Shown: positions 105-29,765 of the stretch, piece after piece
Numbering within the stretch: the first letter of the stretch is position 1
How the letters are laid out: every line of letters starts with the position of its first letter
DNA from: Ophelia neglecta
Lineage: Eukaryota
NCBI GenBank assembly: GCA_965285935.1
Contig: OZ260661.1
Location: 139,066,001 to 139,130,000 of the forward strand
DNA: 64,000 nt
Direction of reading: 5' to 3'
Program-made: the position numbers and the translations under genes
The notes under the pieces: generated by a model
What the model was told of the DNA's origin: nothing
What the model saw: only the letters and a program-made list of their open reading frames with translations
Database searches by the model: none

Positions 105-1696
<1,592 letters not shown>

Positions 1697-2730: not shown

Positions 2731-2911
2731 AAATAGTGCAATATAAAGAAGACATAAAAAACTTTATACTATCACACCCAATTTAAGATGAATATGATGA
2801 ATAGTTTGACATGATATTATAAGAACATCAAATGTACTAACCGTTATGGTAAGATAATTGCGAATATCGCTTTTAATTGTGGACATGGTCTTAAGAATTG
2901 ACGTGAATTGA

Positions 2912-4372
<1,461 letters not shown>

Positions 4373-4815
4373 CGAAATTACTAGAATATAATGATATTAT
4401 ATGGACCCTTAACATAATAAAACAATTGAGTGGCATAGATCGTGAATGATTAAGTTCAATGACATGTGTAATACATTAGATAATGACGGATGATTCAGCA
4501 ATAAAAGCAACACAAGTCACTCAGTGGTAAGTCCTTAGTTAAGAAAATATTGGTAGTGTTCGCTGGCTTATTTAGCTATTGTGGGTCGCTAACGACAATA
4601 CCAATAATTTTATACAATTCATTGTGTTTGCATTTAAGATGATAATAAGAATGCTTACACATCAACATAAATACAACTTACAAAAATCACATATATTGTA
4701 TCTAAACATACTTTAATTGAACATGCTGTCAAAAAACCATTTGGTTAATACAGCTCCAATTAAGTTACAGGCCTCCGTCTTGAAAAAATAAATAAATTTA
4801 AGTAACACATTGAAT

Positions 4816-5406
4816 TGCACTAGTAAGAGGATAGCATAATAACATTTATAACTAAGTGCAAACATTTGTCAGAGGATAACAAAATAATATTTATAACTAC
4901 ATGTACATTCATTCTCTAATGAGATGATAGGATAATGAGATTTATAACAACAAACATATACTAATTAGAAGAAAACATAATAACATTAATAACTACGTGC
5001 ATACACTAGTTAGAGAGATAGCATAATAGCATTTATAACTACATACATATATACACTAATTAAAAGGTCGCATAATACCGTTTATAACTACATACATACT
5101 CTAATTAGATGATTACATAATACCATTTAAAACTACATACACACACTAATTAGATATTAGCATAATAAGATTTATAACTAAATACATACACTAGAGGATA
5201 GCATAATAGAGGATAGCATAATAAGATTTATAACAACATACATACACTAGTTAGAGGATAGCATAATAAGATTTATAACTAAATACATAAACTTATTAGA
5301 TGATAGCATAATAAGATCAATAATTACATATATACAAAAGTAAGTGGATAACATGATAACACTTATAACTACATACAAACACTAGTAAGATGATAGAATA
5401 ATAACA
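4816..5406. repeat. Second copy of the ~40-bp minisatellite
   Basis: Part of the 2676-bp duplication. Confidence 0.85.
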
Positions 5407-6110
5407 AAATAGTGCAATATAAAGAAGACATAAAAAACTTTATACTATCACACCCAATTTAAGATGAATATGATGAATAGTTTGACATGATATTATAAGA
5501 ACATCAAATGTACTAACCGTTATGGTAAGATAATTGCGAATATCGCTTTTAATTGTGGACATGGTCTTAAGAATTGACGTGAATTGAATGTTTTTCGATT
5601 TTTTTTTAATGTTTTGATGTCATTAAATTACCTCCGTTGGTTAAAAAAATTAATTTAATGTCATGTTGGAATTTTAATCATCATTGATAATATCATAGTT
5701 AGTTTGTACTCAAAATTTTTAATTGTATTTTATGAATGTATTATTTTTTGAATGGTAGATTCCAGAGATAATAAAAACATTTGCACACAAATCAGTATTC
5801 AAACCTACATACTCTTGTAAGTTGGCTTAATATAGAATCTACACATTGATTTAGGTATAATCCTGAACATACATAACTAAAAGGTGTAGTTGTCGGGTGA
5901 TAACTGTTCATCTAACACCTATCTTGGACTATGCACTAATGCATAATAATTAAGTCGAGGAGCGAGTTAAGAAAGCAAGGCCCGTCCTCAACCACGAGAG
6001 ACATGTCTGATAATTCTCCCGTGCAGGCGAATCGAATGCGCCTTGCACAGCGCACGAGTTGCACAACAGGACGCTGTTGTAGGCCTATACTAGTCCAGCA
6101 TAAACGATTA

Positions 6111-10713: not shown

Positions 10714-11889
10714 TTATTCAGCTGGGTCAAACTCATTCCGTTTTTCTCCCCGTTCAGTAAGATCCATGTTTTCATATTCATTTAAATTGGACGTCGCTTT
10801 TCTTGCAACCCACCAATCCGTTAAAGGGGGGATGATGTTTCCAACAATGACAAGACAGATTCCCATCACTGCCTGCCAATTATGGTGTCCAGGTTGGTAG
10901 TAAGCAAGAATAGTATACTGAAAAATTCCAAGACAAACTATCGTGGAAGTACGTAGGATGGAGAATGTAACGAGAGGAATCATTTGAACAGAATATATAA
11001 ATAAGCCTGCGCTAATCCCAACTGTCCACCCATGACTAAGAAGTAACCCCCAACAATTTATATTTGTTGGTAAAATTGGAGATTCAAGTATAAGCATCAG
11101 CACAACAGAAAGAATGAAAGCAATGAATGCAATCCAAAATGAGATGATCTGCGGATTAACTGCCGATATACACTTGTTTATGATGAACAAAACGGCAAAC
11201 ATCCCTGCGGCAGATAACGTTGTAAATACATAACCCTTGAAATCGATGTTCATGGGTTCATTTGCATGAAAAGTTGAGTTTAAACTATTGTTGTTGAGTT
11301 TGCAGTGTCTTTCACTGGGCAGTGAAAAATTAGTATCACTGGCGAAGCACGTATACTGACAGGAACCATAAGCTACATCAGGTACATCCGTAAAGCCAAG
11401 AAAGTTAGGTTGAGTTATAAAGGTCACGCCGACTGTACATAACACAGAGGCACTAGCCGTACTCACTGAGCATGCTCGTTGAGAAATAGCCTGCTGAACA
11501 GACCCAAACACAACAATAAGCGTGGTTTGGAATCCTATCAACAATGTAACCGGTAGTATTGGAGCAGCCGAATACATAAAATGATTGGTCCCCAAAGCGA
11601 GAATGGAAACAATGAATACCCATCCGAAGTATCTTCTTTCGACGCTTGGGAGTGTTCCTTGTGCAACCAAAATGATACAACTCACCAAGATTTGTGGAAA
11701 AAATCTAAAAGCATTTAACTCCTGATCAGGAATGAATCCTCCCAATGCCTGTGCACTGGCTATGCCACAAGCATGACCAATTGACCCTAGAAGGCAGGTA
11801 AGACATCCCCATACGCAGTCAGACAAGATATAGCCATAATGGTGGAGCGCTGTGTCTTCAAATATCCGGTTTATCCAAGAAGACATCAT
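10714..11889 (-). CDS. SLC35G/EamA (DMT superfamily)-like multi-pass membrane transporter, single coding exon
   Basis: Uninterrupted ~391-aa ORF from the ATG at 11889, with about 10 hydrophobic segments in two EamA-like halves (e.g. IPDQELNAFRF...Q; YTILAYYQPGHHNWQAVMGICLV). Confidence 0.7.
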   Translation of the reverse strand: MMSSWINRIFEDTALHHYGYILSDCVWGCLTCLLGSIGHACGIASAQALGGFIPDQELNAFRFFPQILVSCIILVAQGTLPSVERRYFGWVFIVSILALGTNHFMYSAAPILPVTLLIGFQTTLIVVFGSVQQAISQRACSVSTASASVLCTVGVTFITQPNFLGFTDVPDVAYGSCQYTCFASDTNFSLPSERHCKLNNNSLNSTFHANEPMNIDFKGYVFTTLSAAGMFAVLFIINKCISAVNPQIISFWIAFIAFILSVVLMLILESPILPTNINCWGLLLSHGWTVGISAGLFIYSVQMIPLVTFSILRTSTIVCLGIFQYTILAYYQPGHHNWQAVMGICLVIVGNIIPPLTDWWVARKATSNLNEYENMDLTERGEKRNEFDPAE

Positions 11890-13089
11890 CGGGAGCGATA
11901 AACTTTCATATATCACAAGTGGAAAAATTCTCAGCCGTATTTGTCACAATTAGTCTTATTAGTATGCCTTTTGAAAGTAAGTTGATACAAGCATATGTGC
12001 ATTGCCAAATATAGTTTTCAGGGTGTATTATAGCAAGCACGTTTCACCGTTAGTGAACTGGCAATGATGTTTGTGGGACTGTGGCTGACGGATCCTGATG
12101 AATTGAAATGCTTTGACAGTATGTCGTTTGCTTAAAACGGTGCTTTATATGTCGGTTAACACTCCAGCTGTTTTAATGTTGTGCATATTACATTAATTTT
12201 TAACGTGGAACCAGGCTCCCAGCATATACATGTGTATCACAGCTATTGTATATATAGATATCACTAAGTAAATCTATAAATATATGTGACGCATCAGAGA
12301 TAATAACTTGGGTAGTCCAGTAATTGTGGTCAAATAGGTTTAGGCCCGACTTTACCAACTCTACACTAGTAGATTTAGTGTTGAAATGTCAGCCTGTTAG
12401 CCACAGGCACCAGCAAATATCAACAAAGGCAGGAGCAGTTTGTAGGTGTTCAGTGGAGGACACATTGTTTTATATTTCTTACAACTTATGTAGCCCATAT
12501 AGAAGGTAAAGTTGTCAAATATGTTTAATCTAACAGTTAAAGTGTTATCAAATAATGATACATATTCTAGTTAAGTTTGGTTGTGTGTAATTTTGTAAAT
12601 CATAAGTTAAGTATATAACTTGCCAGACTGGCTCGGTGTATTGCATTGTATATGTATGTGCAATGGTGTGCAGTTTCTCAACACATGTGATTTCAAGCTG
12701 ACTGAGAGTGGTTATTAATCATATGTATGGTGTTTGAATTGACGATGTTATTATTTCGGTCCAATATATGTGTTTTATGAAGTATTAATGAGCATTTATA
12801 TCCCGACTACATAATTTAAGGCATATACATTATTCCCTTTTTTCATTTACAGTTTAACCGTGAACACTCCAACAACTGTCTACAATAGGCCTATTGTGTC
12901 AATATCTAATGACTGTATGTTCCAAAAATAATAAACAAAAAACCTTAAGACATAGTGACGCATTTAGCTTGTATCAAGGGCTACCAAAGGCTATATAAAG
13001 TTTAACTTCTAGGTTCGTTTCACCACAGAAAGCTGCCAATATTGGCTACAAGTTTCAACAAATTCGACTAGTGTTCCATATAGTGCATC

Positions 13090-13960
13090 ATGTCTTTTGT
13101 GAGACGACTTGACCAAGCTAAGAAGGCCAGGAAGGAACACAAATCTCGCATCACAAGGCTCTTAAATGAGCAAGCTGAATTTCCGATGAGTGAGACAAAC
13201 TTCAATGTCATATTTGAGAAGACGAAGCGGCTTGGAGTTGCTATTCAGAAGTTTGAAAAGGCTGACTTCCATTCTATGTTGATAAAAGAATATGACATAA
13301 TGAAATCCGATGAATATGTAAAGATAATGGATGAGAAATACACCCCTATTATGAAGATATATAAAAACTGGTTAATAACTACCAAAGCAATGTGCAGCGA
13401 AGGATAAGTTCTGATGGCAGTATCAGGACTCCCGAATTGTCACAGACTAACTTGAAAGAGGTAACAACCAAATCCAGTTCCCGGACCAGAATTTGAAGAA
13501 GACAACTTAGACTATGTTAGCAATACAGGTACAAGCAATGTTTATGCTACCTCTTCTGCCCTTTTAGCGGCGCAAAGACTTAAGTCTGAAGCGAAGGAAA
13601 TGGAGCTGATGCTAAGGAATGAGCGACAAGAAATTGAAGCAGAACGGTTCCAATTTGAATTCAAAAGGCGTCAAGAAGAAGCTAAGTTACAGCATAGACG
13701 TCATGTATTGGAGCTTCAAAAAGGGCAATGGACCTGCAGATGAAAGACCGTGAGATTCAACTCAAAGAAAAAAATATTTTTCGGTAATCGTTTGGAGAAG
13801 ATAACACAGCAATCTGATTCCTCACAGTGGAAGTATGTCAACACAGCAGACAAGGCTCCTGTTATTATTTCTCGCTGCATGGCTGCTTCCGAGCCCGTCA
13901 CATGCCCGAGAAGGATTGAAGGACCATCCTTCTTAAAGCTTCCAGAGGCCAAATGGCCAA
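13090..13960 (+). mobile_element. Internally deleted BEL/Pao LTR-retrotransposon relic
   Basis: 13090-13740 is a coiled-coil, gag-like N-terminus with stops. 13750-13960 reads FFGNRLEKITQQSDSSQWKYVNTADKAPVIISR...EGPSFL..PEAKWP, matching the Pao RNase H C-terminal motif (FVANRV..I......QWRYVPT..NPAD..SRG...W..GP.FL). Confidence 0.7.
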
Positions 13961-13962
13961 AT

Positions 13963-14033
13963 CGACCTGACGGGGAATCGAACCCCGGCCACGGCGGTGA
14001 GGGCGCCGTATCTAACCACTAGACCATCTGGGA
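13963..14033 (-). pseudogene. tRNA-Glu(CTC)-derived pseudogene
   Basis: The reverse complement TCCCAGATGGTCTAGTGGTTAGATACGGCGCCCTCACCGCCGTGGCCGGGGTTCGATTCCCCGTCAGGTCG resembles metazoan tRNA-Glu-CTC and has A and B boxes. The acceptor stem mispairs and U33 is C. Confidence 0.75.
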
Positions 14034-14049
14034 ACCATAAATATATATA

Positions 14050-15014
14050 CAGTCCCCTCCCGGATTATCCGAACCAAATCGATGTCCCCCGAATTTTCAA
14101 AATATGTGTGATTCGCTTAAATTAATTGCAATGTGTACTAGACGAAACGGTCACACCCGCACTGTTTGTTAACATGCTGCAGTCGCACATCGGTCTTTAA
14201 TTGCACTCAGCGCCTGGAACAATTGACTTATAGCCCCAATGCGATACAAAGTCAGTTTGTCTAGATAGCCGGTCCTCTTTTATGTTCAATCGTTTGATGT
14301 TTCATCCTTTAATGTGTTAATTTTACCGAGTACTAATCGTAATTCACTGCCCTTACGAAAACTAGGATGGGGAGTGAGATAAATGCTCGCGATCAACCAT
14401 CATACACAGGCCTCCGACCACTACGGGACACAGCGTTGTCCAAGCGATCCGCTTCACTCAAGCAGAAACGAATTGGTGACTTCTTTTAAAAGAAGTTAAG
14501 AATGGTGAATGGCAAGTGAAAAGATATTGACTTTTAAGACGCAGTGTATTAGTGATTATCGATTCATTGAGTGACTACGTCTTGTGAGTGATATTTTGCA
14601 TGTCCACAAGCCTCGCTTTCGATTAAAGCTGCCATGATGTTTTTATCTAAATTTAGTCTTGTTAAACGGGTCAGCGTCTATGACTTTGTAGTTTGTTTAT
14701 TGTACGGTAACCTCGTGTCATTACATTTAGTAAGCTTATTACAAAAAAGCAAACAGAATACCCGAATTTAACGGCAAGTCATAACCATTTTATAATAGAG
14801 TTCTCTGCGGTATGCTGTTCTTCGTGACCAATTTTCAACCATGCTTGGAAAATGTCAATGTGCATATTTCTACCATACGTGAATGTAATTATGCCAACTT
14901 GTCTTAAATAAGCAACATTATATATAGGATCGGCCATCCTCTCTCGTTTTTCCGACCTCCGGATTATACGAACTAATTCTTTGTCCCCGGGCGAGTTCGG
15001 ATAACCGGGAGGGA
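14050..15014. mobile_element. pogo/Tigger-like MITE
   Basis: The left end TA|cagtcccctcccggattatccgaac and the right end gttcggataaccgggaggga|tatata form a ~20-bp inverted repeat. A subterminal copy lies at ~14956. The flanks are TA repeats. Confidence 0.7.
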
Positions 15015-16989
15015 TATATATATATCGCCTAGGATAAGCCCATCACTCTAGATAGCTTCCCGAACATTATAACGATAGAAAAATATATTATGTAGTGAGC
15101 TTAAATGGGGAACTACTAAGTTATCGACAACGTATAAACAACCTATCTACAATCACTGTGTCGTCCGCTGCTGCCATGGTATTAATGGTAAAAATAGAAT
15201 GAATGATTTTGGCCCAATATCATGTTACGATGAATTTTGAATTATTAGTATTAACCAGATTTATCGAGCAAGATTAATTGGAGCATCGTGAAAACCGTCG
15301 ACTACCTCTTGAAGTGATAAATTTTTTTTTCAAATATTGTCATTACAAGTATGCTTTCTGTTAGAGAGCTTGTGATTGGGGTTTTGAGTGCCTGCAACTG
15401 GTGGTTTTTTTTATCATATTTTCCTTAGGAACTTTACATGTTCGCTGAACTGTTCATTATGTAACGATCATCAAAGGATTCAATCACAGGCCTGCATTCT
15501 GTCTACTTGCTATCTAAGCCGGACTTGCTTATTTGTTACACGGTTGACCATTTTATTTTCATGAATAGTGAGCAAGCGAACATATCTAAAAGATCAAATA
15601 TCGGTTTACCATCGGGAATTTAATCCAGTTGTGGGTATATCAGTCCACAGTTTGTTAATAAGCTGCGATCACAAGGCGTTTCTACACTCAATACATACAC
15701 ATCAGCTGTATCCGGGTATGCGGATATCACATGGGGTCGACAAGCTTCCTGTTATTGACTCAGTTTACGCTTCACGCCTACTTAGGAAATCATTTCGGCA
15801 AACCCAACCACCACAAACAAAACTAGTAGGCCAACGCGCACTCATATAAAAGGCGCTGCCGATATTAAACCATTCATAAGAGTTTCCGGGAACTGTTATT
15901 TGCCCATGACATGCACTAAAGGTTATTCGGTCAAGAATTGGAGCTTGATTTCAATTAGGCAGTTGTCCACCATACTTTCATGAAATAATGGCACCAATTT
16001 AAATCAGATGATACTAGTTGGCCCTCCAAAGGAAAATAGAATACAAGAATAACTTTACTGGGAATAATGTTTGGAAATGAGTCTGTAACCGGAAGACTCA
16101 AACATTGGTACACTCATAGAGTTCAATTTATTTGCCTAAATATGCTAATTAACAAAGAATTAAAGAATTAATTTTCATTTATTATTTACGTAGATTTTAA
16201 GATTAAGCCAAGCACTTCATATTCCTATAGTCTGAGTAATCAACATAATGAAATATATGGCTAAAAGTGCAATAATGGCAGTTAGGGATTGAAACATGGT
16301 TGTTATCATGGAAACTGTATAGTGAGTAAAGATCAGGAAATTAGCATTGATCTGCTAATCTATAAAGGGGCCGAACATTTGATAATGTAAGGGGGGGGGG
16401 GTGAGACTTGTTTTTTTCAAAACATTTTTTGGCCTCTTCCAAAACTTTCTTTTTTCCTCATAGTTGCCCTGCAAAATTTTTTTTTCCTCTTAGGTCATTT
16501 ATGATCCTTTTTTGGAGGTATTATATAAGACAAATTGGCAAGATAATAGGTTATTGATTTATTTCCTAATATATTTGCCACAACATATATGTATTTATGT
16601 ATGTATTTTCTTTATTATAGTGACATGTCAAATTCGATATAACAAATTAATACATTACGTATCAGAAGAAATTTACCCAGCCCAGCCTGAGCTTATATGT
16701 CACTTCAAATGACAGATATTTTACAATAATATAGCTGCCCCATGAGGTGCACACACCAAACGAAGAACAGAGAATCAAATCACACATAAATAGCATCTAC
16801 CAGTGACATAAGACATATTGCTGACTATATTGTAGGTAAATAGATTTACTTATTGAACAGAATCTGCTTTCTAAGAGAGAGAGAGAGCCATAAATATATA
16901 CTTTGCCAAATTTTATATTAATAATTTGGAATTTGCACTGCATATTTTGTTCATATATATCAGGGTACAATTGACTTACACTGTCTAAA

Positions 16990-18030
16990 ATTTGTTTTCA
17001 AATCTGACCACAACGTGGACAAATACATAAAAAGTGAAACTCGTCTTCCACATAATTTAAATCACACAGTTCACATAAGCGATCTTCCACCCTAACATTC
17101 CTATACCTGCCAATTTCAATGTTTAAAGGCAACACACCTGACCTGAATTGAGCCAAGCCACTCCTATATTGTTTAGTCATATTAAATTAAACATATTTTT
17201 CACAGATAAAGGACTATTTAAATTTACTATAGGTTCTAAGTTTAGGCTTGGCTTGTACCCCTGTCTTCCAGCTGTCTTCAATAATTTCGAAAAATCTTGC
17301 ATTTACTACATTTATCTCACAATGTTGTTTATCATACAATACATGTTATAATTGTAAACTTTCAAAAACTGGTCTGAATAAATTATTAACGAGTTGAAGA
17401 TCAGGAAAACTATATTCCTTGTCAGACGGTTTGGATTCATGCCTATAAACCAATTGTACAATTAACACAAAGGTTTCATGCGATAAAGTGATGGGGTCCA
17501 GGCAAAGTCTCCATGGAATCCATAAATAGGTGTACTGTGTGTTAGACAAAGGAAATATCTTTATGCCCTATTTTAAATGTTATCAATATTTTCAAATTTT
17601 TTACTCACTCCACAGTGCACCGAAATAATCTGTAATGGGGAAAACACACGAATCATACAAGTTCTTAAATGTGGCATGGCCATTATCTCGAAGAGATTTA
17701 AATTTTGAAAATAATCCCACCCAGGGACCTACCCCGGAACCCGCCAATATTTCAGAGCCATTCTTGTAAAGGTGTTCGTCTAGATACATCCCAAGGTATT
17801 TATATTTTGGAACAGTATCCAGACTTTCATGGCCATACATAAATACTGTATTAGATACTGATTTGCGTTTGCGCCTGAAATGTTCGTTTTTTTTTCTGTA
17901 TTTATAGACATTCTATTTCTTTCACACCATTCTTTCAAACAATCAATTAACTTTTAAAGCCTCATTTTAGATTCAGACGGAAGTATCATATCATCCGCAT
18001 ACTACAAAATAGAAAGTGTTAAATCATCCA
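16990..18030 (-). mobile_element. Degenerate non-LTR retrotransposon (LINE), 3' part
   Basis: YADD motif at ~17990-18002, KYKYLG, and a C-terminal LAQFRSGVLPLNIEIGRY...C..C....VEDEFHFL..C zinc knuckle. The frame is broken by frameshifts and stops. Confidence 0.85.
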
Positions 18031-18731
18031 ATGACCCTCCACTTTAAATTGCAGGGCCAAAATCCCATCAAAACTCCTATTAACACAAGATATAGTGAAA
18101 GATTTAGATACTGAATTCTTCACCAAAACACAATATAGTGCATAGCTTTGAGTGTAGCCATTTGGTGGATTTGGCCGGCATGTAGGCAGCTATCCGTTCG
18201 ACCCCGGTGGCGTCTAGGAAAAGGTCAGTGAAGATGTGATTAGTGGTCACCGCCATGGTAAGTGTTCAGTCTGGGGACACTCTGGCAAAATTTAATTGTG
18301 ATTGTTATTGGATGATAACATGATAACATAGACCCCAAGAAGAACGATGTAATTCAGACGGGGTATTTTTTCGTGACAAGGAAGTGAAAAGGTGTTTCAA
18401 GATAGATAAAAAAGAAGAAAAATTGCTGGTCTTCATGATATATTAATTAAGATGAGTATTTGACTAATGCAATATAAGATGATAATTTGTCTCCATGGCT
18501 GATTCTTATCACAAGGCACTGTAACATATGATTTGAAGAGCTGCCTTACAGGGGTCTCTTATTATTCAAAATTGACAAAGGGTACTCGTTATTCATTACG
18601 AACATAAACTGAGGAATTCAATTAGAGCGAAATCTTATTTATTTGCTATACTTGTAAATTGAAATTCGGACAAATCTTCCTCTTACCACCGTGCTAGTCG
18701 ATGTTAACGCCTCATTGCACACATACCAATG

Positions 18732-21700
18732 CTAATAAATACCTAGCGCAGCCAGCTGTTCAATTACACTGGGTAGATATCCACGCCTTTAAGAGAAATA
18801 TAGATTACTAAGAAGTAACGCTAATGTCAAATGTCTATATGATGTGATCATAGTTGCAACTATCTCAAAATTTGTTAATGTCATGACACGTGGCTGCTGT
18901 AAAAGAGGTTTTAATAAGCGGATTAATATACGGAACCTAAACCTGTGCGTTAGATTCTAACACATCTCATGCCTCATCATATAACAACATACATATTTCA
19001 TAGTAAATTATCACATCTGCTTACCAGGCTGCTTGTCCCTTGTTAGTTATAAGGTGGACCCCGTTCCATGTTATCTGGCCTCCAGCCCCAATAACGAATA
19101 ATACCCTGGCTTCAAATGCTTGTTTCAAAAGCTTCACTACTCGCTTACCCGCAGTAGTATCCTGTACGTATGCCTTGTGATGTTTACTACCGTACCTTAT
19201 GCCCTGTAAGTCAAGATGATAAAATTAGCAAAAAATACACCTGGATCTATTTAGATTAAATGAACTATTCTGAGATGATTTTCACTTTATAAGACGACAT
19301 TTATATTTAAATGTATACAGTATGTCAATAATGTTGTGGGTTCAGTTTGGATCAGCAACTAACTTTTGAATAAATATTTCAAATTATCCGTATTAGAAAG
19401 GATTGTGTTGATATGATGCAGTAGACATATCGTACCCGTTTTGTTTCTTAATATGCTCAGGAATGGATGATTAGTTTCATTCTCCGCCATCGGAGCTTAC
19501 AATTAAACATAAACACAACTCTTTACCTCGACTTCATGGTCGACATAGAAAGATACTTACTGTAGTCTTTACCCTCACCTGAACTTCAACCCGGAGGCTG
19601 TGCCTTGGTCGGACCTGTTTCTAAGGAATACAGATGTCTTTAAAATAAGTTTGATAAGTTACCTGTTGGTTTCCGGCAGGAAAATGAAATGATATTTCAA
19701 AAGTGCCGCCCTTGTTCCAGCATCCAGTAAGCTGGAGATCCATATGGTTGGTTGTCATAGTTCCATGTGGTTGTCCAGACGACCTGGTCGGCCTGGCTGT
19801 ACTGAGTTGGTTGAATAGAGAGTCTCCATACGCTCCAAAGTCGGAATCACTATACAGCCCATGATTTGGGTCGGTTGTATGTGCCTTGTACTGTGAATGT
19901 GGATATGGCAAAAACTGGTGTATGTTGTCTGTTTCGCCATGGTAATTTTCAACGCTTGGCGTTGTGTTCGGAATAAAATGTTCGTTCAATCTTGACGCCG
20001 ATCTCGTTTTGTAGTTAGCGTCTGGATGGGAATCGTCACGAAGTGTGTATAAATCAAGTTGTTGAAGTATAGAGAGGGCGGGCGATCTTCCGCTGCTTGA
20101 CTGCTCTCGTTGGTTGAGGTTTTTGACTGGAGCAAATGACAGGTTTGAGTCTTCCCTTGTACCGTACGAGTCGAAATCGTACTCTGGCTCCTGCGTAAAA
20201 TCTAGGTCTACATCATTGAAAGACCAGGTTCCTTGATTTAGAGAACTTTCATCGACATTTTGAGATTTAGGATGAGTTTGCAACATAGGACCCGGCAAAT
20301 TCTTATGGCCAGTGTGGACCAGTTTTTCGAGGAGCTCTCGCTTTGCCTGGTTTATATGCTGCTGATCGCCGATAATTTGGATTATTTCAGCATTGCAGTC
20401 AAAAACAACGTATTCATATTTTCGCTGCATGCCTCTAATCGTATCCGAGAGTTTACGTCCAGTGCACTGAAGTTTAGTGATGTCAATAGTTTCTTTGTGT
20501 ATTATGTCATTCAGTTCAGTTGCAATGAGTAAAACTTCCATCACACACTTGTCTACATCCTTCTTCGATCCTCTTATAAGTAAACCGTGCCCGTTCTCTT
20601 GTTCCACTGATTTGATTTTTACATCGCACAGCCTGCTTATTCTATCAAGGTCTGCCTTTCTAAACTGCTGTATATATTTGGACAACCGGTAATCTAAGTC
20701 TATTGTTTCGGTGATATGTTTGCTATTGAAAGATTCAGCTACATGGGTTAAAGTTTTAGATTGGAGTTTGTCAATGGTTTTCTTTGAGTTGCTGTCGACT
20801 ACCGATTTCATGGTCAAACTTGCAGCGTCATTTGTTGCCGTTACTTGTAACTTTCTCTGAAACGACTCGGCTAACTTCATCAAAGTAACCGACTGGTTAG
20901 TATCAATTATTTTCTTGTCGCTGTTGTCATCTAGGTTTATAGGGTGGGTCTGATTTGGCATAACACCCAAACAATCATGAAATTCAGAAACGATCAGTTT
21001 CTGTTGATTTATGTTATGTGATCTCTCTAATATCCGTACCACGACTGAAATATGAAAATGTACGCATATGCACAAGGTTTAGTACGATTCAATGTAATAT
21101 AACTTAATGTATACATTCCCTTTCTAATTGTTTTCATCGTTTACACACAAAAGAAACAACACAAAAAAATTCATAATAAGTACCTTCGTGGTCCTCATAA
21201 TGGATAAAAACACAATCTTGATCCGAATTCCTCTGGTATTGCACAATTTTTCCCCCTCCACTTCTTTGGCTTTCAAAATAGAGCTGGATTAAAAGGTCAT
21301 CAAGGCGTTTGACCCCTTCCACCTTGACAGCTGTAGACTTGCAAACCTTCTGTAGCCCTAGCATGTTACCCCGAAAAGGACGTACTCTCGTGAGTTCTCG
21401 CATCCTACTGAATTCTACAAATAACACAACACATATCACTGTATTCTATGTACAAATATGCAATCAGTAAAGCACCTGCTTTAATAAACGGGAGGCGAAG
21501 CAACAGTTCATTAGGACCGACTCCTAAAAAAGCACTGTTTTAAGTATGTTGTGTTTATGAAAGGAAATCTTGGGCAGATAGAAAAGGCGAGATTGTTCAT
21601 TCAATCAATGTGGAATATTGAGCAATAACTAATTAGCTATTTCAGTCCGCATACAAGAGGGGTTTGGCCTCTGTTTCTTTTCTTGTTTTTTGCCTCCCAA

Positions 21701-24700
21701 AGAACGCAGTGGCACTATTTCTTTTATATCATTATACATTTATAAAGAGACTCGTTATTGTCAAATGTTCATGTTGAATATAGTATTTTTTTCGAGAATT
21801 GGTTAATGATGTGAATCAAACGAGAGTGAAGATACACTAATTTTTATGTACATATACTGAACATAACTGTACAAAATTTTCTTTATATGTGAAGATCAAA
21901 TGATTTTTTTTCTGTCGGTACTTTTATATAAGAATTAAAAATATCTGTCTGGCTTAATATTAGATGCGTGGATTATCAGAAATGATATGCTATATATATA
22001 TATATTCTTCGAATGTTAATCATTTAGTCTAGTAGTCACATCTTTTTAAAGTGCAGTAGTCGCTTTACTCTTAAAGTCCTAATATGGTCTGGGTATTCAA
22101 TTAGGTCATTTCAATCTGTAAGGCTCCGTAGCTGAAGCGGGTCAAATCTTAACTGAGATTAAAATCAGAATTAAATTGCTTAATCGGCCTTAAATTGCTT
22201 AGGGTTTCTAAAAGCAGGATGCGCTCTTCCTATCCAATTTGGTCGTTAATTTATTCCTGATCAATAGAAACACGGATAAACGCAGTCTCAAGTAATCGGT
22301 TATAGACTAATATAATACCTACACGCAATACCGATTCCAGACACAAGGTACACGGCCCTCAAATTAAATGAAATAATCCACGAATGCTTATATTGGACAA
22401 ACCTATTGGACACTGGAAGGTCACCAAAGCTGTAGACATACTTTGACCCAGGATTACACCCTCGATAGGACTTGTAGCATGCTTCTCGAGAAATGCCTTT
22501 AGGTCCGTGAGCGTGCTGCCAAACGTAATATTAGTCACAAAAACTTTTTTATCATCAATACAACCATGTACATCTGGCATTATAATTGCAGCGGCAAGGG
22601 GTTTCACCGGTAAATGCATCTCCTTTGGCCACTGCGGGATACTAGCCACTCTTTCAGCAACTGGAACAATTGTTGAATAAATTAAAGTAAATAGCCTACT
22701 TTCCTGTTTAAAATTAATGGGATGATTGACAGAAATGAGTCCAGTTAATTTCTGGTGACACCTAGGGAAATATTCTACATAACTAATCTCTAAATATTTA
22801 ATGTCTTATAACTTTTAAAACCAATTATTAAAGACCCACATATAACATTTATTATCATATCAAAATGGCAATATTAAGATCGAATGTTTCCGAAAATGTA
22901 ATTGAAAATATTAATTTAACAATGCGAGGGTATCTTATAAACGCCTCCAAGTCCTTTTTCACATTCCCTACCTTTAGCAGATTTGAATGTGATGGTGACC
23001 GAGTTTGCAGATATCAGTTCGTCTGCATAGAATTCCTCTATTGTACCGCCTCCTGATCTGGGATCGCTCTCAAACCACCATTTGAGATACTCCCTTTCGA
23101 TAGCCTGGGGAATATTGGTAACAACGACTGCTAGGCTACAACCAGTGGTGACCGATTCTGTATATAGAGGAGATCTTTAAGAAAATTGTGTCCGGTCTAC
23201 TCGACAGATTAGAATATGCTATACAATAAACTAAAACTGTAGCAACTAAATTGTTATTATTAAGGTTCATCTTTAAACTATTCGCCGCGGTCATGTCAGT
23301 CAAATTGAAAGTGATACAGGAGGGAATCATTATAAGTGTATTCACACATTATCTTTCCCAATATTATTTTTTGTTGATAATAAAGAACCTATATAACATT
23401 GTTATAATAAGTTGAAACACTTTGTATCAGAAAGTTTTTTTTTTGTATCGCGAAAAGATATTTATTTGTATTTTATTCTATTGGTGGTTAAACATGATGG
23501 AAAATATAAGAATTACCTTCATTCCTGGCAGTGTCTCCCAAATGATTTCCGCACGAAAACCTACAATATATTAAAGCGATGACAGTTAAATATTTATTCA
23601 ACTTTATCAATTATGACGTTCTATTTCTTCCAATTTTCGTGGTTACCTGTTCGTAAGTCTGTTGAGGTATGGGTTTTGCACTGTTCTCAAAAATGAGGTA
23701 CTAAATGTGTACTCATAAAAAGTCGCAATGGCCCAAACATTTGCGCTCATTCATGCACTTTAAACAGAATTTTAATTTGCCATAATTCACGCTGCGCCTT
23801 AATTTCAAACTGATCGCCTCTTAGAGTAAATCAATGCTGACAACAAATCTTAACAAGTAATAATTTCGATTAACCTTTCCAAGATGACGATAAACGTGGG
23901 TCTTTTCGAAGGCACAAATACTAAACATCTGGTCATGATTTTCTCTGTATCCTGCACCTGCTTTCTCAGGCTGGTATAAGCCATAGAGTGCTGTGGTAAA
24001 CGTCGATCATTAAGAAATGAGGTTACACAGCGCCGAAAATCCTTCGATGTGTCAGGGTCATGCTCGAACTCTTTTTGGAATGGAAACTGAAAGTCAGGAT
24101 TCAGAAGACAATACAGTACACAGCCATAAGCCCAAACGTCAACCATTTTAAGTTCAGACATATTTGCGGATTTCAGATATCCAAGTATTGCCTCAGGGGC
24201 TTGGAACGGGATTGTTCCCCTGTCAACGTTTGCGGTGCGAGACGCTAGAATCGAATTAGTTTGAATGTTACAAGACCGTGCCTCTCCAAAGTCAGTTATC
24301 TTACACTCAATCACTATATTATCATCAAGAACTCCATTTTTGGTGTTCCCCACGAGGATATTGGACGGTTTAAGGTCTCGGTGAGCGATGTTGCTGTCGT
24401 GTAGGAATGCAAGTCCCTGAGCAGTGTTATTTGCAATAACCCTAATGATATCATACTCTTCTTGAAATAAACCAACAGCATCACATTCATGCAGCAATTT
24501 CAGAAGTTCACTTAGGTTTGTGACCACTTTGTTAATTCCGTATGGTTGTAAGTCGAAGGCCACATATTCCATTACAATGGCAAGTGGTTCAGCGACCGCG
24601 CCCAGTATTGACACTATATTAGGGTGATTCAATGCACAGAGTACATTCAACTCTTTGATCAATGTTTTAACGTATATTTCGTCATCGTCCTTTTGGTTCG

Positions 24701-25045
24701 TTTTCATTACACCTTTCGATTCTACAAATGAATAAGATAATTATTAAAACATTTGGTCAGTATCAAATTTTACTGTTATTTCGGACATACGATATGATAT
24801 AAGGATAACGTTAGTACACCCCGTTTAATAATGCACAATTAATTTGTGTTTATCAAACCCCTACCTCTTTTCAGTTTAAAAGTCACCAAATCTGCTCTAC
24901 CAAAAGAACCTGCCCCGATAGTCTTTTCAACCTTCAGGTCCTCTGGTGTCCATACTTTAACTCCAGCGCTTTCCAAAGCTTTTTTGCGGTTAATATGTTT
25001 ACACTTCAATTCGTGATAGTTCAGTTGGATTTTTGGTCTGTCCAT
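18732..25045 (-). CDS. Protein kinase - 3xRRM - KH - DTC fusion (RING-less DTX3L-like), ~1120 aa
   Basis: Nine exons form one open 3363-nt frame: 25045-24865, 24721-23875, 23560-23517, 23157-22972, 22660-22403, 21414-21184, 21044-19663, 19203-19025 and 18786-18732. All introns are GT-AG with matching phases. Kinase motifs are GAGSFG, VMK, KE, HRDLKPSN, DFG, APE and DVW. PARP14/DTX3L-type RRMs are WFESDPRSGGG and LYFESQRSGGG. The DTC reads GQPHGTM...FPAGNQQ / AFEARVLFVIG..ITWN / YLPSVIEQLAALGIY*. The kinase-to-RRM link depends on the donor AAG|gttaat and a 44-nt exon. Confidence 0.78.
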
Positions 25046-27578
25046 TTCTATAAGAAAAATGAATGATTTGACATTTCACATTGTTTCCGTAGCAATGAAA
25101 CCTATAACACTGAATCGCAACATATGATCGCCTAGTTGTTCCCGAAATATTTTCTACATTTGACTAGTTAAAAGCATCATACATTGGTCAAAAAATAAGA
25201 ATGGTAGATACGTAATGTGTTTAAACCATGCAGTGCAGAATGGGGAAATACACAAAACCGGATCACAGAAGGCATATGCATGACGTCAACACCAAATGTG
25301 CATCAAACGCCCGCGCTCTGATGAAGACATTTATGAAGCAGTTAAGTAGAAAAAAATGTTAAATTCTGCCATAAAATCTGCCCCTTAAATAACTTTGATT
25401 AACTATGTAAGGTTACTGTTTAGTAAGCCTAATTCATCAGCTATGCATCATTGTGGACTGGCTTTTCATCGCATCCTGGACTTGAGAAGTATTCACCGAA
25501 AAACGCTTAAACCAATGGAAATAAGGAATGTAGACAAATCAGTTTGCCCTCTGTAAACATATTGGCCAACTCTCAAAGCTGGCCGATTGATAGACACTGT
25601 CACACGCGATTTCAATATTTAATCAAAATTATTGCAATTAATAACTCAAAATTGGGAAAAAAACTTCTTGATATGCTATGGCTTTGATAACTTTCTCGTA
25701 GTAGTTTGCAAGAATTGAATAAATATCTCATTGCTGTAAGAGCGAATGGAACGAATCTTCTCACATTCAAAACTAATTCGAGATATGCAGTTAACCAAAC
25801 ACCTCCGGCTCAGATGCCTCAACTAGAGGTGTCTATGGAAAAAGCAGGGCATGTCAAATGAGAGGAAACGATCATGGATATAAAAGTTTGTCATGTAGGA
25901 ACACTCATTTCTTTGCCCTCTAATGATTTTGCTGCCATTTTGAAATTTGCTTTTATGTATCTAACATAATCATATGACGACTTTTCGGCTGGGACAAGTT
26001 GGAGTTTTTTTGTGTGATATATTAATCCAAGCAAATTATTATATGCCGCTTTATCAATCACTTAAACTAACGGGACATACATGGTGTCCCCTCTTGGAGC
26101 TTGTATCGCATGTATCCGCATGTATCGTCAGGGTACTCAGGTGGTGGTGGGGGCAATCTAGATGAGGGAGGCTATTTTACACTTTCCTTTATTATTTGGC
26201 GGGGCGGGGGGGGGGGGGGGGGCGGAGGGGGAGGGGTTAACGACTTTTTACCATACCCTTAGGAAAAAAAAATAGAAAATAAAGATATCTTTTGTTTATT
26301 TGCAAATGAAATTCAAACAATCATTGGCCCCTGCTTCGCGTCTCCAATCTTGTTCCCCAAATATTTGAAATTTAATCACCTTTTCTTCTTACTTTTCACA
26401 GTCTAACATATTTCTAGGTATCAGTATGTAAGGCATTATAGGCAACATTTGTAATGCAATGTGTGAAAACGGCCGGCTGACGTTCGGGGGGAGGGGGTGG
26501 GGTGTCGGTGTATGAATCTCCTGCTTTCTTTTCTGTATAGACTGGGCTGTTATGTATATTTGCATTTGTTTTGCTCAAGTTGGCGAAAAAAACCTTCTTT
26601 AAACCTTCTTTAAACCTTCATCTGTCAGAAATTCCTTGGTTCCATTATTTCGTGTAATATTTTTGGCTATGTTGCCATGGTAACCAACCATAATGCTAGT
26701 AATACACAAATTGCCGTAACTTGCTCATTATCAGTCACGAAGAGCTGGGTTTTAGCTCAAAATGATAACCTGTTTGTCAAGAACAATTTCTGGTAATAAA
26801 ATGTAGCAATCATAGCCTAATTTGCATAAATACAAGATGGCCACCATTTTCAATATTTGCTCATTTTTACCTTCTTTGGTTTGGCAAGCCAATATATTAA
26901 ACTATCATGTAATCATGTACGAAGTATGAAGATTACGATATTCATTTCTTGGTGTAAATATAAATATAAATATATGTATTAAGTGTATGAAGCTCTTATC
27001 GTGTTCATAAGGTCACGTTACCTGGCTCCATTTTTTTTTGTCAAAATTCTCAATTATTTTACTTAATTATGAAATCTTGACCAAATAGACCTTTTCAACA
27101 TAAACATTGTGTTTCAACAAAGATATCATGTGATTTAAACCTTAATTTAGTAACTTATGTTCATTATTATATTCTTAAAAAATTAAGGGAGATTGGGTCA
27201 AAAAGGTTTTGATTCTTTCAATAACAGGTGGGCGCGGGGGGGGGGGGGGGCTCGAAAAAGGTTTGAAGCTATACTTAAGGGGAAAGCAAAAATATCTGAA
27301 TAATTTTTTTCCCAAAGGATACCAAAAGACCCAGCTAAACTATTCCATTATTCAAAAGCGTGGCCGAGTTGTTAGGGCGTCCGCCTCGCAAGTTGCAGAT
27401 CGGGGAGCAAATCGCGTCAAACCCAAGACGTAACGAGACACTTAGGTGCAAAGCCCCTTTGGAATCCCGCGATAAAGTCATGGGCATAGGCCAAAAGTTT
27501 TAGCAGTCTTGTATCTCATCATTGAGTTGCTTGTCACAATCCTAAGAATACTTAATGTGAAATACTGAGGGCAAAAGT

Positions 27579-27853
27579 TAATATCGTCTGTAGAACAGTC
27601 ATTGGGTTAAATGCATTGACAAGTGTTCTGTTTTGCTAATCAACCACTCGTTTTAGATGAGCGATAATGGACGAATAAAAAAATAACAGGCGGCAACAAT
27701 GCAATGGGAATACTAGGTAATATCGTCTGTAGAACAGTCATTGGGTTAAATGTATTGACATGTGTTCTGTTTTGCTAATCAACCACTCGTTATAGATGAG
27801 CGATAATGGACAAATAAACAATAACAGGCGGCAACAATGCAATGGGAATACTG
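27579..27853. repeat. Two-copy 139-bp tandem duplication in the divergent intergenic region
   Basis: taatatcgtctgtagaacagtc...gggaatact is repeated at offset 139 with a few substitutions. Confidence 0.9.
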
Positions 27854-29524
27854 TTACCAAACTGATTTAACGAAAGCCAATGCCACACACACATATTATT
27901 TGATTCCTCAAATACGTATCTTCAGTTTAAGGACATCTAGGCCCTATCTCGTTTCTGTCATGTTAGCTTGCGAATCTTTTTCAGCCTTTTCTATGGATAA
28001 TAATTGGTCCATTGTGTTGGTCAAAGGCGATTAAAGATTATTTTATCAAATGATTATTATTTATAAGGTTCATTTGTAGATTCAACTAGAATTGCCATTG
28101 GCAGTAATGTGTCGCCACATACCTTATATGTTCGCTATTTAGGTCATGCCATATTTATCGCCTGTCAGCCAGAAAATTAGACGAGAAACAAAACACCCAT
28201 TATCCATTGGAGACTCCAGCGAGAAAGAACATCTTATTCTGGCCTAATCTGTATATGATAAGCGTATATGTAAGCTCTAATTTATGGGAATGTTGTAAAT
28301 CTGAAGGTTTGTATTGAACACCAAAGGTGGTGTGACTTTCATAGCCTACATAGCAAAATGAGGTCACGAATCTATCTCCGCTATGCTTCGCTTCGCGGGA
28401 TAAAAACAGATACTGATAGCTCCCCTGCCAGACGACCGGCATTTTCGTGGTGGTATCAGGACTGATCAACCAGTATAATGCAAACAGCGCGCACATTCCA
28501 TATGAACTAGTACACATGCACTCTTTTCACTGTAAACGCTCTATCTTCTTGAGCTATTAGTTTACAAATGTCTAGTATATACCTATATCCAGGGGCCTGG
28601 TCAAGGTGCCCTTCAGGAAAGAAAATATCGAGGGAATCTAATTTTAGTTGTAATCATATTTGGGGCCTATTTTATGGATTAAGAGGCACGAACAAGCAAG
28701 GGCCCCCACAGCCGTCGAAGTCAATTTCGTCAAAATTGCAATAAAAGGTAAAATCTGCCAAGTAACACTCGTATTTATAAATAGTTTTGAATAATGTCGA
28801 TATTAAAAATCTGTGCTTATTTGCCAACCAGCTTAAGAGGAACCAGCAGTATATATTTACTGCCCCAAGCAGCGTATACAGTACATCAGACAGATACATT
28901 GGGTCAGTAAAAGGATGTACATCACACACATCAAGGTTATGTATATGTGTCAACAAAGTAATGATTAGCAGCATAAACGAAAAGCAGTATTATAACGAGA
29001 CAGGCATTTATCGCCCAATCATTTGTTGGCCTACTAACTACTCTGGTCGCTGTATGCAGCACTGCGCTCTTAGGCGCTGCGAGAGAACAATGGAATAACC
29101 ATCGAAATGGGAATAGAATAGCGCCAGACATGATACGACATATAAAATACGAAATGAACTAGGATAGGAATACAATGCTCATCCATTTGGATCCCAGATA
29201 GCATACAAATTTTGGGCATCAGGGGACAGGCGAGTAGGGGGTCTTATAGGGCGGGGACCAAAGGAGTATGAGAAAAAACGACCAGGCCTGTTAAGAGCAA
29301 GGATTTGGCCATAAAACCAAAAATTCTGCTGGGCCTGAACGTCCTGCGCGCGCACGCGCGCTCACCCTTCTCCACCCCACGTAACAACCCGCTGTCAGTG
29401 AAGAACCAGAGGAGCAGTGCTAAATCGTGCAGTGTGGCGCTACAGCGCCGAATACGAAGACCCCAACTACCTTTTCAGGTTGATGGGGTACTAGGTCTAG
29501 ACCCTTTCTCACCAATTCTGACGT

Positions 29525-29765
29525 AAAAATAGGCACTTATAGCTCCCCTGCCAGGCGCCCGGTATTTCGGGGGTAGTATCAGGACTTGTCAACCCGATGT
29601 CAGTATAATGTGACTGGGTGGGGTTCCCTGTCTGGTGTCTACGGCAGGTACTCCAGTGAGGCAGCACTCTAAAGAGGGCATTGGGCCCACTGTCACAAGT
29701 AGGCACCGTGGCGATATGACCATATAAGTGTCAAATAAGTGTCACGTGAAACCCCAAACAACCCA
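29525..29765 (+). mobile_element. SINE body/3' fragment (Meta-SINE-like core)
   Basis: Reads ctcccctgccaggcg...gtcagtataatgtgactgggtgggg...gtgaaaccccaaacaacc. A diverged partial copy lies at ~28417-28480, and a tRNA-like A-box head at ~27360. The family assignment is from recall only. Confidence 0.55.

Follow-up and report, generated by a model that had tools for sequence, protein, structure and literature searches.

The window analysed here, 64,000 nucleotides of the Ophelia neglecta genome (assembly GCA_965285935.1, contig OZ260661.1, positions 139,066,001 to 139,130,000), contains a predicted gene of nine exons whose 3' end lies at 18732..20300; it runs on the minus strand from 25045 to 18732 and codes for 1120 amino acids. 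The predicted product consists of a kinase, three RRMs, two KH folds, a 179-residue linker without cysteine and a DTC (Deltex C-terminal domain), in this order. All introns of this kinase-DTC model are GT-AG and the 1120 codons contain 0 stops. The initial annotation of the locus was restricted to the 3' part: the gene reaches 25045, and the macrodomain is missing besides the RING. The features of the model are:

24865..25045, minus strand: exon 1, the first coding exon, with start codon and GT donor; start of the kinase N-lobe with the Gly loop GAGSFG (motif at amino acid 44)
23875..24721, minus strand: exon 2, remaining Ser/Thr-type kinase with beta3 Lys, alphaC Glu, HRDLKPSN, DFG and APE; phase-2 donor after ILER
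23517..23560, minus strand: exon 3, 44-nucleotide connector, phase 2 to phase 1
22972..23157, minus strand: exon 4, first part of RRM 1, PARP14/DTX3L type; PF23085 26.1 bits (cut-off 24)
22403..22660, minus strand: exon 5, end of RRM 1 and RRM-like domain 2; 35-46% identity to the matching paralog exon
21184..21414, minus strand: exon 6, first part of RRM 3; PF23085 26.4 bits
20317..20697, minus strand: tandem KH folds, DTX3L-like, within exon 7 (21044-19663), from AlphaFold2 model and Foldseek
19777..20313, minus strand: low-complexity Cys-free linker of 179 amino acids, within exon 7; paralogs have macrodomain, intron and RING here
19663..19776, minus strand: N-terminal part of the DTC at the end of exon 7, GQPHGTM ... 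FHFPAGNQQ; phase-0 donor
19025..19203, minus strand: exon 8, middle of the DTC; HPNP and S-T-T-T loops deleted, Arg replaced by His, Trp/His/Thr kept
18732..18786, minus strand: exon 9, last DTC helix, catalytic Glu replaced by Gln, stop codon

The kinase domain is readily recognised by Pfam (Pkinase, E 1.8e-36) and has the complete motif set of an active Ser/Thr kinase (Gly loop, beta3 Lys, alphaC Glu, HRD..N, DFG and APE); the encoded enzyme is predicted to be active. Its closest solved structure is CDK2 (E 1e-13), and it has no close relative among the solved ones. N-terminal of the DTC, PF23085 is found above cut-off twice (exons 4 and 6); exon 5 had no match in the Pfam scan and its RRM assignment is putative. 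The tandem KH region was modelled with AlphaFold2 from an 8-row alignment (pLDDT 89) and the named Foldseek matches of this model are the tandem-KH proteins Dim2 and IMP1/IMP3; the KH_DTX3L profile matches at E 0.0064, which is under its cut-off.

The kinase-to-RRM splice donor is at the same codon in 39 of the 40 other kinase copies of this genome. RRM exons are found downstream of the kinase in 32 of these 40, and 18 of the 32 have a 44-nucleotide candidate exon between the kinase and the first RRM. The introns of the DTC have the positions and phases of the paralogs (0 and 2), GT-AG ends and an open frame, as originally annotated. We infer that all nine exons are probably spliced as modelled. 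The donor of exon 2 (GTTAAT) is weak and intron 2 contains AATAAA/ATTAAA, thus a kinase-only transcript is possible.

Loss of the RING and the macrodomain

The O. neglecta genome has about 50 loci of the DTC family. Filtering 52 other DTC loci by RING and exons left 37, of which the 36 distinct ones served as canonical set; among those left out, two gave no model and the others had been extracted wrongly, were broken or lacked a RING. In all 36 RING-bearing paralogs (clean three-exon DTC models), the RING lies in the exon of G.QP, with its last Cys 8 residues ahead of that motif, in line with what the initial annotation had described for the other Deltex genes. In the kinase-DTC gene it had described a Cys-free stretch rich in S/N/D/H instead, and this is correct too: the stretch before G.QP (20313-19777) has 179 residues, 0 Cys and 35% S/N/D/H, although the pre-RING linkers of the paralogs have 29%, so that this percentage is not unusual.

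On the spliced protein, a RING profile made from the 36 paralogs reached 0.1 bits, and nothing in the six frames of 12,001-31,000 exceeded 3.2 bits, whereas a control paralog scored 107 bits; on this result and the Pfam scan, a hidden RING in this gene was rejected. A macrodomain signal is likewise absent from it. The 179-residue linker has no Pfam match at E<=1, U-box included, and an Atlas search also returned none; exon 7 modelled as single sequence reached a pLDDT of 39, too poor for judging a U-box fold.

Of 20 kinase copies followed downstream, five run into macrodomain, RING and DTC, while other copies of the kinase-RRM head carry FN3-array, ankyrin-repeat or PARP-type tails. The kinase-RRM-KH-macrodomain-RING-DTC layout seen in paralogs is ancestral, and the kinase-DTC gene has lost macrodomain and RING together, the one a reader of ADP-ribose and the other a writer of ubiquitin. 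Macrodomain-RING-DTC is also described as the state before PARP9 in the accessible text of bioRxiv 10.64898/2026.04.23.720386, and the O. neglecta paralogs show that state. The proposed switch of output from ubiquitination to phosphorylation holds in one half: the ubiquitin output is lost, but the kinase predates the loss, as the five RING-bearing copies have it. Since the kinase is already on RING-bearing relatives, the gene has given up one of its two outputs and kept the other, instead of exchanging them.

The DTC fold and its ADP-ribose pocket

Exon 8 alone is identified as DTC by Pfam (PF18102, 36.3 bits, cut-off 25) and its best PDB match is DTX3L (3PG6, E 5.3e-6). The DTC is shortened by 18 codons, in frame: exon 8 has 179 nucleotides (218 in 46 of 50 paralog models) and exon 9 has 55 (70 in 44 of 50). 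Mean identity to the DTCs of the RING-bearing paralogs is 41%, compared to 69% among those paralogs, and the domain has the longest branch of the family.

Deletions have removed both HP(N/H)P and the S-T-T-T loop, and VHLIT stands in place of IHHKT, in agreement with the initial annotation. The reported loss of GYPD applies to its surroundings only: when exons are aligned by their junction, R-G-Y is kept and the next five residues are deleted. Residues were numbered according to PMC7500938 and PMC7442474, fitted to the motif spacing; these studies list Trp/His/Thr, Ser, Thr, Arg, an aromatic residue and Glu as NAD+/ADP-ribose contacts in DTX1 and DTX2. Pocket Trp, His and Thr are invariant (36/36 paralogs) and all kept in the kinase-DTC gene. 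The pocket Ser (36/36) is replaced by Gly, the Thr of the pocket loop (36/36) is deleted, the Arg (34/36) is replaced by His, the second stacking aromatic residue (35/36) by Arg or a gap with a Trp adjoining the lost position, and the catalytic Glu (36/36; Glu608 of DTX2) by Gln. Two of these damaging changes, Arg to His and Glu to Gln, were absent from the initial annotation. The catalytic His (His582 of DTX2) is retained, with the adenine-contacting Trp and Thr; in DTX1, Trp577, His581 and Thr584 touch adenine and its ribose (PMC7500938). The diphosphate clamp (Arg534, Ser566 and the backbone of Asn567/Thr568 in DTX1) is gone: Arg is His, Ser is Gly and the loop is deleted. The DTC His and Glu have been called strictly conserved and E608Q markedly impairs DTX2 (PMC7615817). 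To judge from the aligned residues, the damage is one-sided: the adenosine side is kept, and the diphosphate and catalytic side is lost. The pocket is thus remodelled as claimed on the latter side only, and the ligand-contacting His and Thr are still there in VHLIT.

The dN/dS of the DTC branch was 0.23, 0.29, 0.34 and 0.34 in four alignments or taxon sets, and dN/dS = 1 was rejected in all four (p 3.6e-5 to 4.7e-3); these values are averages over a long branch (dS 1.3-1.9) in which recent relaxation could hide. The kinase branch has a dN/dS of 0.12. All 26 aligned columns of the hydrophobic core of the DTC are still hydrophobic, which was equalled in 1 of 3000 neutral simulations, with a P value flattered by slight over-mutation (25.7 changes, 22 observed). 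The fourfold sites, by comparison, have almost saturated, with 30% identity where chance would give 25%. All six indels listed over 18695-21880 are intronic (three runs, one sample), and the gene shows none of the marks of a pseudogene looked for (stops, frameshifts, broken splice sites, dN/dS near 1). By these measures, the DTC is preserved as a folded domain under purifying selection. Two more RING-less, pocket-damaged DTCs with open frames are present in the same genome (dN/dS 0.30 and 0.40); a common origin of the three has a tree support of 56, with long branches.

Function of the kinase-DTC protein

The description of the protein as a pseudo-ligase is supported by the absence of a RING, the replaced catalytic Glu, the missing diphosphate loop and a fold under purifying selection; a scaffold role would fit. 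The explanation that we favour, with a little more confidence than doubt, is a kinase with three RRM-type domains, two KH folds and a ligase-dead DTC of conserved fold that likely serves protein docking. The best reading is an immune-type kinase and pseudo-ligase with a DTC kept for a non-catalytic job; the protein likely signals by phosphorylation and its tail is likely a docking module rather than an enzyme. Ligands of the RRM/KH part may be single-stranded nucleic acid or else KH domains in partners of the PARP14/DTX3L type, as for human DTX3L: full-length DTX3L binds ssRNA (PMC10810221) and its binding to PARP9/PARP14 goes via KH-like domains (PMC11080071). Such binding, or clustering, would turn the kinase on. 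The protein would take part in innate immunity alongside the RING-bearing paralogs and the PARP14-like gene that lies head to head with it; targets in DTX/PARP complexes could then be phosphorylated by the cell with no ubiquitin put on ADP-ribose. The PARP14-like neighbour has a degenerate kinase but still has His and Tyr in its PARP motif, and the KH of this putative partner spans two exons.

Human DTX3L is RRM-KH x5-RING-DTC (PDB 3PG6). Like DTX3L, the kinase-DTC gene has RRM and tandem KH before the DTC and has kept the equivalent of His707; unlike DTX3L, it has an N-terminal protein kinase, three RRMs, just two KH folds and no RING, the diphosphate loop is deleted and the equivalent of Glu733 is Gln. 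The DTC family of O. neglecta is large and lineage-specific, like the bivalve DTC expansion (bioRxiv 10.64898/2026.04.23.720386; PMC8382680, as far as their accessible parts go). The invertebrate DTX3L-like proteins in these accessible parts have macrodomains, in contrast to the kinase-DTC gene, which has neither macrodomain nor RING, and these parts mention no kinase fusion or RING-less member; the word 'kinase' occurs 0 times in the main text of bioRxiv 10.64898/2026.04.23.720386. The same source, in its accessible part, describes a bidirectional UTR common to DTX3L and PARP9. Like this pair, the locus would have a pseudo-enzyme beside an active partner, and its gene lies head to head with a PARP14-like one; unlike PARP9, which is catalytically weak or inactive, the dead part is here probably the ligase and the live part probably the kinase. 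According to the accessible part of PMC8195603, Crassostrea DED-TRADD-N fusions also place a signalling head on RRM/KH and PARP14-like effectors and are lineage-expanded and shuffled; the O. neglecta head differs in being a protein kinase and its tails include RING-DTC, dead DTC, FN3 arrays and ankyrin repeats.

Searches of the literature and databases found no match to the kinase plus RRM/KH plus Deltex-tail architecture; PMC13224862 and PMC10221186, searched as well, gave no passage of relevance. The best match in a library of 1.84 billion sequences had 47% identity and matches were mostly single-exon-sized; none of 36 longer matches scanned had an RRM, KH, DTC or PARP domain and 0 of 10 matches looked up were named. 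The kinase had a single match among longer proteins (37%), exon 7 gave 0 of 3955 candidates and exon 8 no candidate. Metagenome and viral scans returned 113 loci (best 41%), and neither these nor the 154 proteins fetched from these scans had similarity to RRM, KH, macrodomain, RING, DTC or PARP. The libraries contain few spliced animal proteins and these blanks are thus weak.

In its known role, the DTC is the half of a RING-DTC enzyme that holds ADP-ribose. Three RING-less, pocket-damaged DTCs under purifying selection in one genome suggest that the domain has a second task apart from catalysis, which could be sought in human DTX3L, and the locus offers natural separation-of-function proteins. 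With one kinase-RRM head on tails of RING-DTC, PARP type, FN3 or ankyrin, the wider family joins phosphorylation to ADP-ribose and ubiquitin signalling within single proteins; the literature and database searches showed no such layout. The weight of this is limited by its source: one genome, a fast-turning gene cluster and gene models predicted from DNA.

Alternative explanations

The selective survival of the adenosine side would also fit a re-tuned sensor: the trimmed DTC may bind adenosine, for example a 3'-terminal A in a nucleic acid (RNA or DNA) that the RRM/KH part holds, and control the kinase. We consider this unlikely. The adenosine-contacting Trp, His and Thr are kept while diphosphate contacts and catalytic Glu are lost, a Trp adjoins the lost stacking aromatic, and the DTX3L RING-DTC modifies 3'-terminal adenosines of nucleic acids via the same His and Glu (PMC11467253). 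The pocket His is replaced in the other RING-less DTCs (Thr in L033, Pro in L035), thus the fold does not force its retention. However, 35 of the 57 conserved columns in the alignment survive, which gives a chance of about 0.2 for three given ones to be retained, the second stacking aromatic is gone, and the RING-DTC of DTX3L alone did not bind ssRNA in EMSA (PMC10810221). Equally improbable is the wider proposal of a nucleic-acid-sensing kinase family made from DTX3L/PARP14 parts, in which this DTC, once an active site for ubiquitylating ADP-ribose, would have been re-cut to sense adenosine ends and gate the kinase; this PKR-like switch, derived from a dead ubiquitin ligase, would work alongside the facing pseudokinase-PARP gene. 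PKR-type kinases are activated by nucleic acids and carry the nucleic-acid-binding domains on the same chain as the kinase. Their likeness to the kinase-DTC protein is one of logic only: the binding domains are unrelated and RNA activation is here hypothetical.

Just as doubtful is the reading of the DTC as a relic that was under constraint through most of its past, with only kinase, RRM and KH now of importance and the frame open mainly because an earlier stop would cause nonsense-mediated decay. Its branch length and deleted pocket loops fit this, as does the related RING-less copy L031, whose DTC is interrupted by a stop right at its beginning. Linker alleles look near neutral (9 non-synonymous and 3 synonymous codons), but among the variants listed the DTC has 3 synonymous and 0 non-synonymous ones (Fisher p 0.044; a tiny count from an incomplete variant set); one contig almost wholly in exon 8 has 4 further differences that are outside this count. 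Frame-keeping alone leaves the intact core and the low dN/dS unexplained, and the two further RING-less copies show the same pattern of constraint.

Least probable of all is a wrong model or silent gene, with the kinase ending at a read-through stop, a 42-nucleotide micro-exon (19620-19579) replacing the first deleted loop, or a recent pseudogene: the exon-2 donor and the polyadenylation-like hexamers of intron 2 would permit the first, but this donor position is conserved in the kinase copies and exons 3-4 lack an in-frame Met, and the micro-exon, which has a strong donor and fits the frame, would need a 42-nucleotide intron (shortest paralog intron 92 nucleotides) and an acceptor scoring under all 53 training acceptors, while none of the alternative in-frame acceptors restores the missing DTC codons. 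Micro-exon and alternative acceptors were thus judged unlikely. A true pseudogene relative, at C1:138.17 Mb, is in contrast riddled with frameshifts and stops. This broken sister was rejected as a dated ancestor of the pocket: it is a chimera, as its DTC remnant is nearest to another paralog (13/17 fourfold sites, compared to 3/10 with the kinase-DTC gene). Broken copies within the cluster indicate a high turnover.

Gene model and domain order

The 762 Mb, intron-rich genome of this animal has about 50 loci encoding a Deltex C-terminal domain (DTC), the majority on contig C1 (OZ260661.1) between 136 and 143 Mb; the count rests on 110 exon-level matches, with 150 of 151 candidates scored. The stretch at window 18732-20300, initially annotated as a Deltex gene, forms the 3' end of a gene on the minus strand that starts with a kinase (the kinase-headed Deltex gene). 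Its nine predicted exons have GT-AG introns and would encode 1120 codons without a stop.

Predicted exons of the kinase-headed Deltex gene (window coordinates)
25045-24865, minus strand, exon 1
24721-23875, minus strand, exon 2
23560-23517, minus strand, exon 3
23157-22972, minus strand, exon 4
22660-22403, minus strand, exon 5
21414-21184, minus strand, exon 6
21044-19663, minus strand, exon 7
19203-19025, minus strand, exon 8
18786-18732, minus strand, exon 9

The predicted protein consists of a kinase (aa 1-343), an RRM, an RRM-like domain, a further RRM, two KH folds, a 179-residue linker and the DTC. All kinase motifs are there (Gly loop, beta3 Lys, alphaC Glu, HRDLKPSN, DFG and APE), and the kinase has no close solved relative (best structure match: CDK2, E 1e-13). 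Two RRM exons pass the PARP14-RRM Pfam cut-off, while the middle RRM-like domain has no Pfam match; the KH pair has a predicted fold with a pLDDT of 89, and its named fold matches are tandem-KH proteins.

Comparison with paralogs suggests that the nine exons are spliced as modelled: the model is supported because 39 of 40 other kinase copies examined share the codon at which a GT donor closes the kinase exon, RRM exons follow downstream in 32 of these 40, and a 44-nt connector exon resembling exon 3 recurs in 18 of the 32. Against the model stand a weak exon-2 donor and polyadenylation-like hexamers inside intron 2, but that the model is wrong or the gene silent appears quite improbable. Intron 7 has a 42-nt in-frame candidate micro-exon (window 19620-19579, minus strand) with a strong donor, which would require a 42-nt intron.

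Loss of the RING and of part of the ADP-ribose pocket

In all 36 canonical paralogs (RING-bearing Deltex genes of the same genome with clean three-exon DTC models) the last RING cysteine lies 8 residues ahead of the G.QP motif, in the same exon. A profile built from these 36 RINGs scored 0.1 bits on the spliced protein of the kinase-headed Deltex gene (control: 107 bits), and no frame of window 12,001-31,000 scored above 3.2 bits, confirming that the RING is absent. The Cys-free, S/N/D/H-rich stretch reported in its position is real (the linker has no Cys and 35% S/N/D/H), but its composition is not unusual, as paralog pre-RING linkers are of similar make-up (29%). The linker had no match elsewhere among the DTC loci compared and a macrodomain query on the gene returned nothing. 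The closest paralogs have the order KH pair, macrodomain, intron, linker and RING, and the kinase-headed Deltex gene joins KH pair, linker and DTC within a single exon; this layout implies that both the macrodomain, an ADP-ribose reader, and the RING were lost through one or more deletions.

In DTX1, NAD+ is described as stacking on Trp577 and His593 and being hydrogen-bonded by Thr584 and His581, with Arg534, Ser566 and the Asn567/Thr568 backbone clamping its diphosphate (PMC7500938); DTX2 and DTX4 reportedly use the same contacts (PMC7442474; PMC13714323). His582 and Glu608 of DTX2 are reported as catalytic, with a marked effect of E608Q (PMC7615817), and H707 and E733 of DTX3L as required for ubiquitylation of nucleic-acid 3' adenosines (PMC11467253). 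These residues were placed by motif spacing on Deltex alignments and the genome's own DTX1-like gene. The pocket Trp, His and Thr, invariant over the 36 canonical paralogs, are retained in the kinase-headed Deltex gene. The pocket Ser (36/36 paralogs) is Gly, a second Thr (36/36) is deleted, the Arg (34/36) is His, Arg takes the place of the aromatic residue (35/36) in an exon alignment by junction, and the catalytic Glu (36/36) is Gln. Exons 8 and 9 are 39 and 15 nt shorter than usual in the paralogs, an in-frame loss of 18 codons that no alternative acceptor restores. The loss thus affects the diphosphate side of the pocket and its catalytic Glu; the remodelled pocket of the initial annotation stands to this extent, but VHLIT, listed there as part of the change, keeps both ligand-touching residues of its motif. 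A role of the DTC as a sensor of adenosine ends is considered unlikely.

By the defining RING and Glu, the gene falls outside the Deltex E3 ligases, but it is descended from a DTX3L-type gene; older forms of DTX3L are reported to have a macrodomain (bioRxiv 10.64898/2026.04.23.720386).

Selection on the DTC and other degenerate loci

The DTC of the kinase-headed Deltex gene has the longest branch in the family (mean identity to paralogs 41% vs 69% among paralogs), with fourfold sites close to saturation (30% vs 25% at random). All 26 aligned core columns are hydrophobic (Cys counted as hydrophobic; two further columns lie in alignment gaps), a result reached in 1 of 3000 neutral, stop-free simulations, which had slightly more changes. 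With our own codon model, dN/dS of the DTC branch was 0.23, 0.29, 0.34 and 0.34 on four alignments or taxon sets, averaged over dS 1.2-1.9 and compatible with recent relaxation; dN/dS = 1 was rejected each time (p 3.6e-5, 1.7e-4, 3.0e-4 and 4.7e-3), and one run showed no difference to background (p 0.55). The kinase branch has a dN/dS of 0.12. In contigs covering 18695-21880 (three runs of one sample, possibly the assembly's source), six indels and one 72-nt skip are all intronic. Among 53 listed variants, counted without the repeat-laden rows below 18,300, synonymous and non-synonymous alleles number 3 and 0 in DTC codons and 3 and 9 in the linker; outside this count are 22 variants and four differences of one contig that lies nearly entirely in exon 8. 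Next to these data, a relic tail with its frame kept open for mRNA stability is a doubtful explanation.

RING loss is not unique to this gene. A strong RING match is present at 45 of the 52 other DTC loci; two allow no judgement. L033 (C1:137.58 Mb) and L035 (C1:137.79 Mb) have no RING and an open DTC frame; neither retains the catalytic His or the Arg, yet a dN/dS of 0.30 and 0.40, respectively, indicates that their DTCs are under purifying selection. L031 (C1:137.62 Mb) also has no RING, and a stop interrupts the beginning of its DTC. The 10-24 kb upstream of these three loci, which have low-complexity exons of 700-1400 residues, showed no kinase. L037 (C1:137.187 Mb) has a macrodomain with degenerate RING and DTC and lies on the other strand from a nearby kinase and PARP gene, and L039 (C2:35.246 Mb) has a RING with a pocket-less, degenerate DTC. 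How decay looks in this genome is seen in L103 (C1:138.170-138.175 Mb), a broken relative with frameshifts and stops at a dS of about 0.7 from the RRM/KH part of the kinase-headed Deltex gene. L103 is a chimeric pseudogene, as the gene at window 59-63 kb is the nearest relative of its DTC remnant and the kinase-headed Deltex gene that of its RRM/KH part; it adjoins an EamA paralog.

Kinase family, possible function and neighbouring genes

The genome has 62 matches to the kinase at E<=1e-20. Five of 20 copies followed 10-60 kb downstream reach a macrodomain, RING and DTC; others have ankyrin repeats, FN3 arrays or an exon of coiled-coil-like type downstream, and one copy lies upstream of macrodomain and PARP exons. 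RING-bearing paralogs with the same kinase head show that the kinase is older than the RING loss and that the kinase-headed Deltex gene retained one of two outputs. The proposed switch from ubiquitination to phosphorylation is therefore half right: the RING output is gone, but the kinase was already there.

We lean towards an active kinase joined to a dead ligase. Beyond the observed losses, motifs, family layout and selection signal, we infer that single-stranded nucleic acid, or KH domains of PARP14-type partners, would be the ligands of the RRM and KH domains, that clustering would switch the kinase on, possibly in immunity, and that the DTC would persist as a folded surface for docking. 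Full-length DTX3L is reported to bind single-stranded RNA (PMC10810221), and KH domains to mediate partner binding with PARP14-type proteins (PMC11080071). Expanded DTC families are described in bivalves (PMC8382680), and swappable heads on RRM/KH-macro-ART bodies in oysters (PMC8195603). Full-text searches, with few subscription papers covered, brought up neither a kinase-headed Deltex nor a RING-less DTC protein, and architecture tables in supplements may list such proteins. No orthologue was found in protein, metagenome and viral libraries, which are poor in spliced animal proteins.

At least 32 kinase-RRM genes (L041-L080, L116-L131) lie at C1:136-140 Mb, C5:111-116 Mb and C9:15-20 Mb, with interchangeable tails (macrodomain-RING-DTC, FN3 arrays, ankyrin repeats, coiled-coil-like repeats or PARP14-like); this family is possibly a bigger finding than the single gene. 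One kinase-Deltex paralog (L063/L049, C1:139.628-139.630 Mb) has RING segments repeated in tandem, and its frame appears to shift ahead of the DTC. The nearest outside relatives of the kinase (P0001 and further long matches) are single-ORF proteins without a name, many of which continue at the C-terminus into regions to which Pfam assigns no domain, and the kinase family itself looks unclassified.

A head-to-head neighbour (window 31991-40149, plus strand, 6.9 kb away) encodes a pseudokinase of the same family, with common exon junctions and loss of Gly loop, beta3 Lys and HRD, followed by KH-like exons, a WWE and a PARP domain with His and Tyr motifs kept. The pair is complementary, predicted live kinase and dead ligase versus dead kinase and likely live PARP, and resembles DTX3L and PARP9, which are reported to share a bidirectional UTR (bioRxiv 10.64898/2026.04.23.720386). 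A single-exon gene at window 10717-11943 (minus strand) encodes an EamA-like transporter; related genes lie downstream of L103 and of the RING-less L035, thus DTX and EamA genes were duplicated as a unit. A 2678-nt tandem duplicate (window 243-2920 and 2919-5596, plus strand; 99.5% identical) carries the RING-DTC 3' end of a Deltex gene and is either a recent duplication or an assembly artefact. Window 52787-53065 (plus strand) matches the Nup98 Gle2-binding motif (Pfam E 3e-15) and belongs to another gene.
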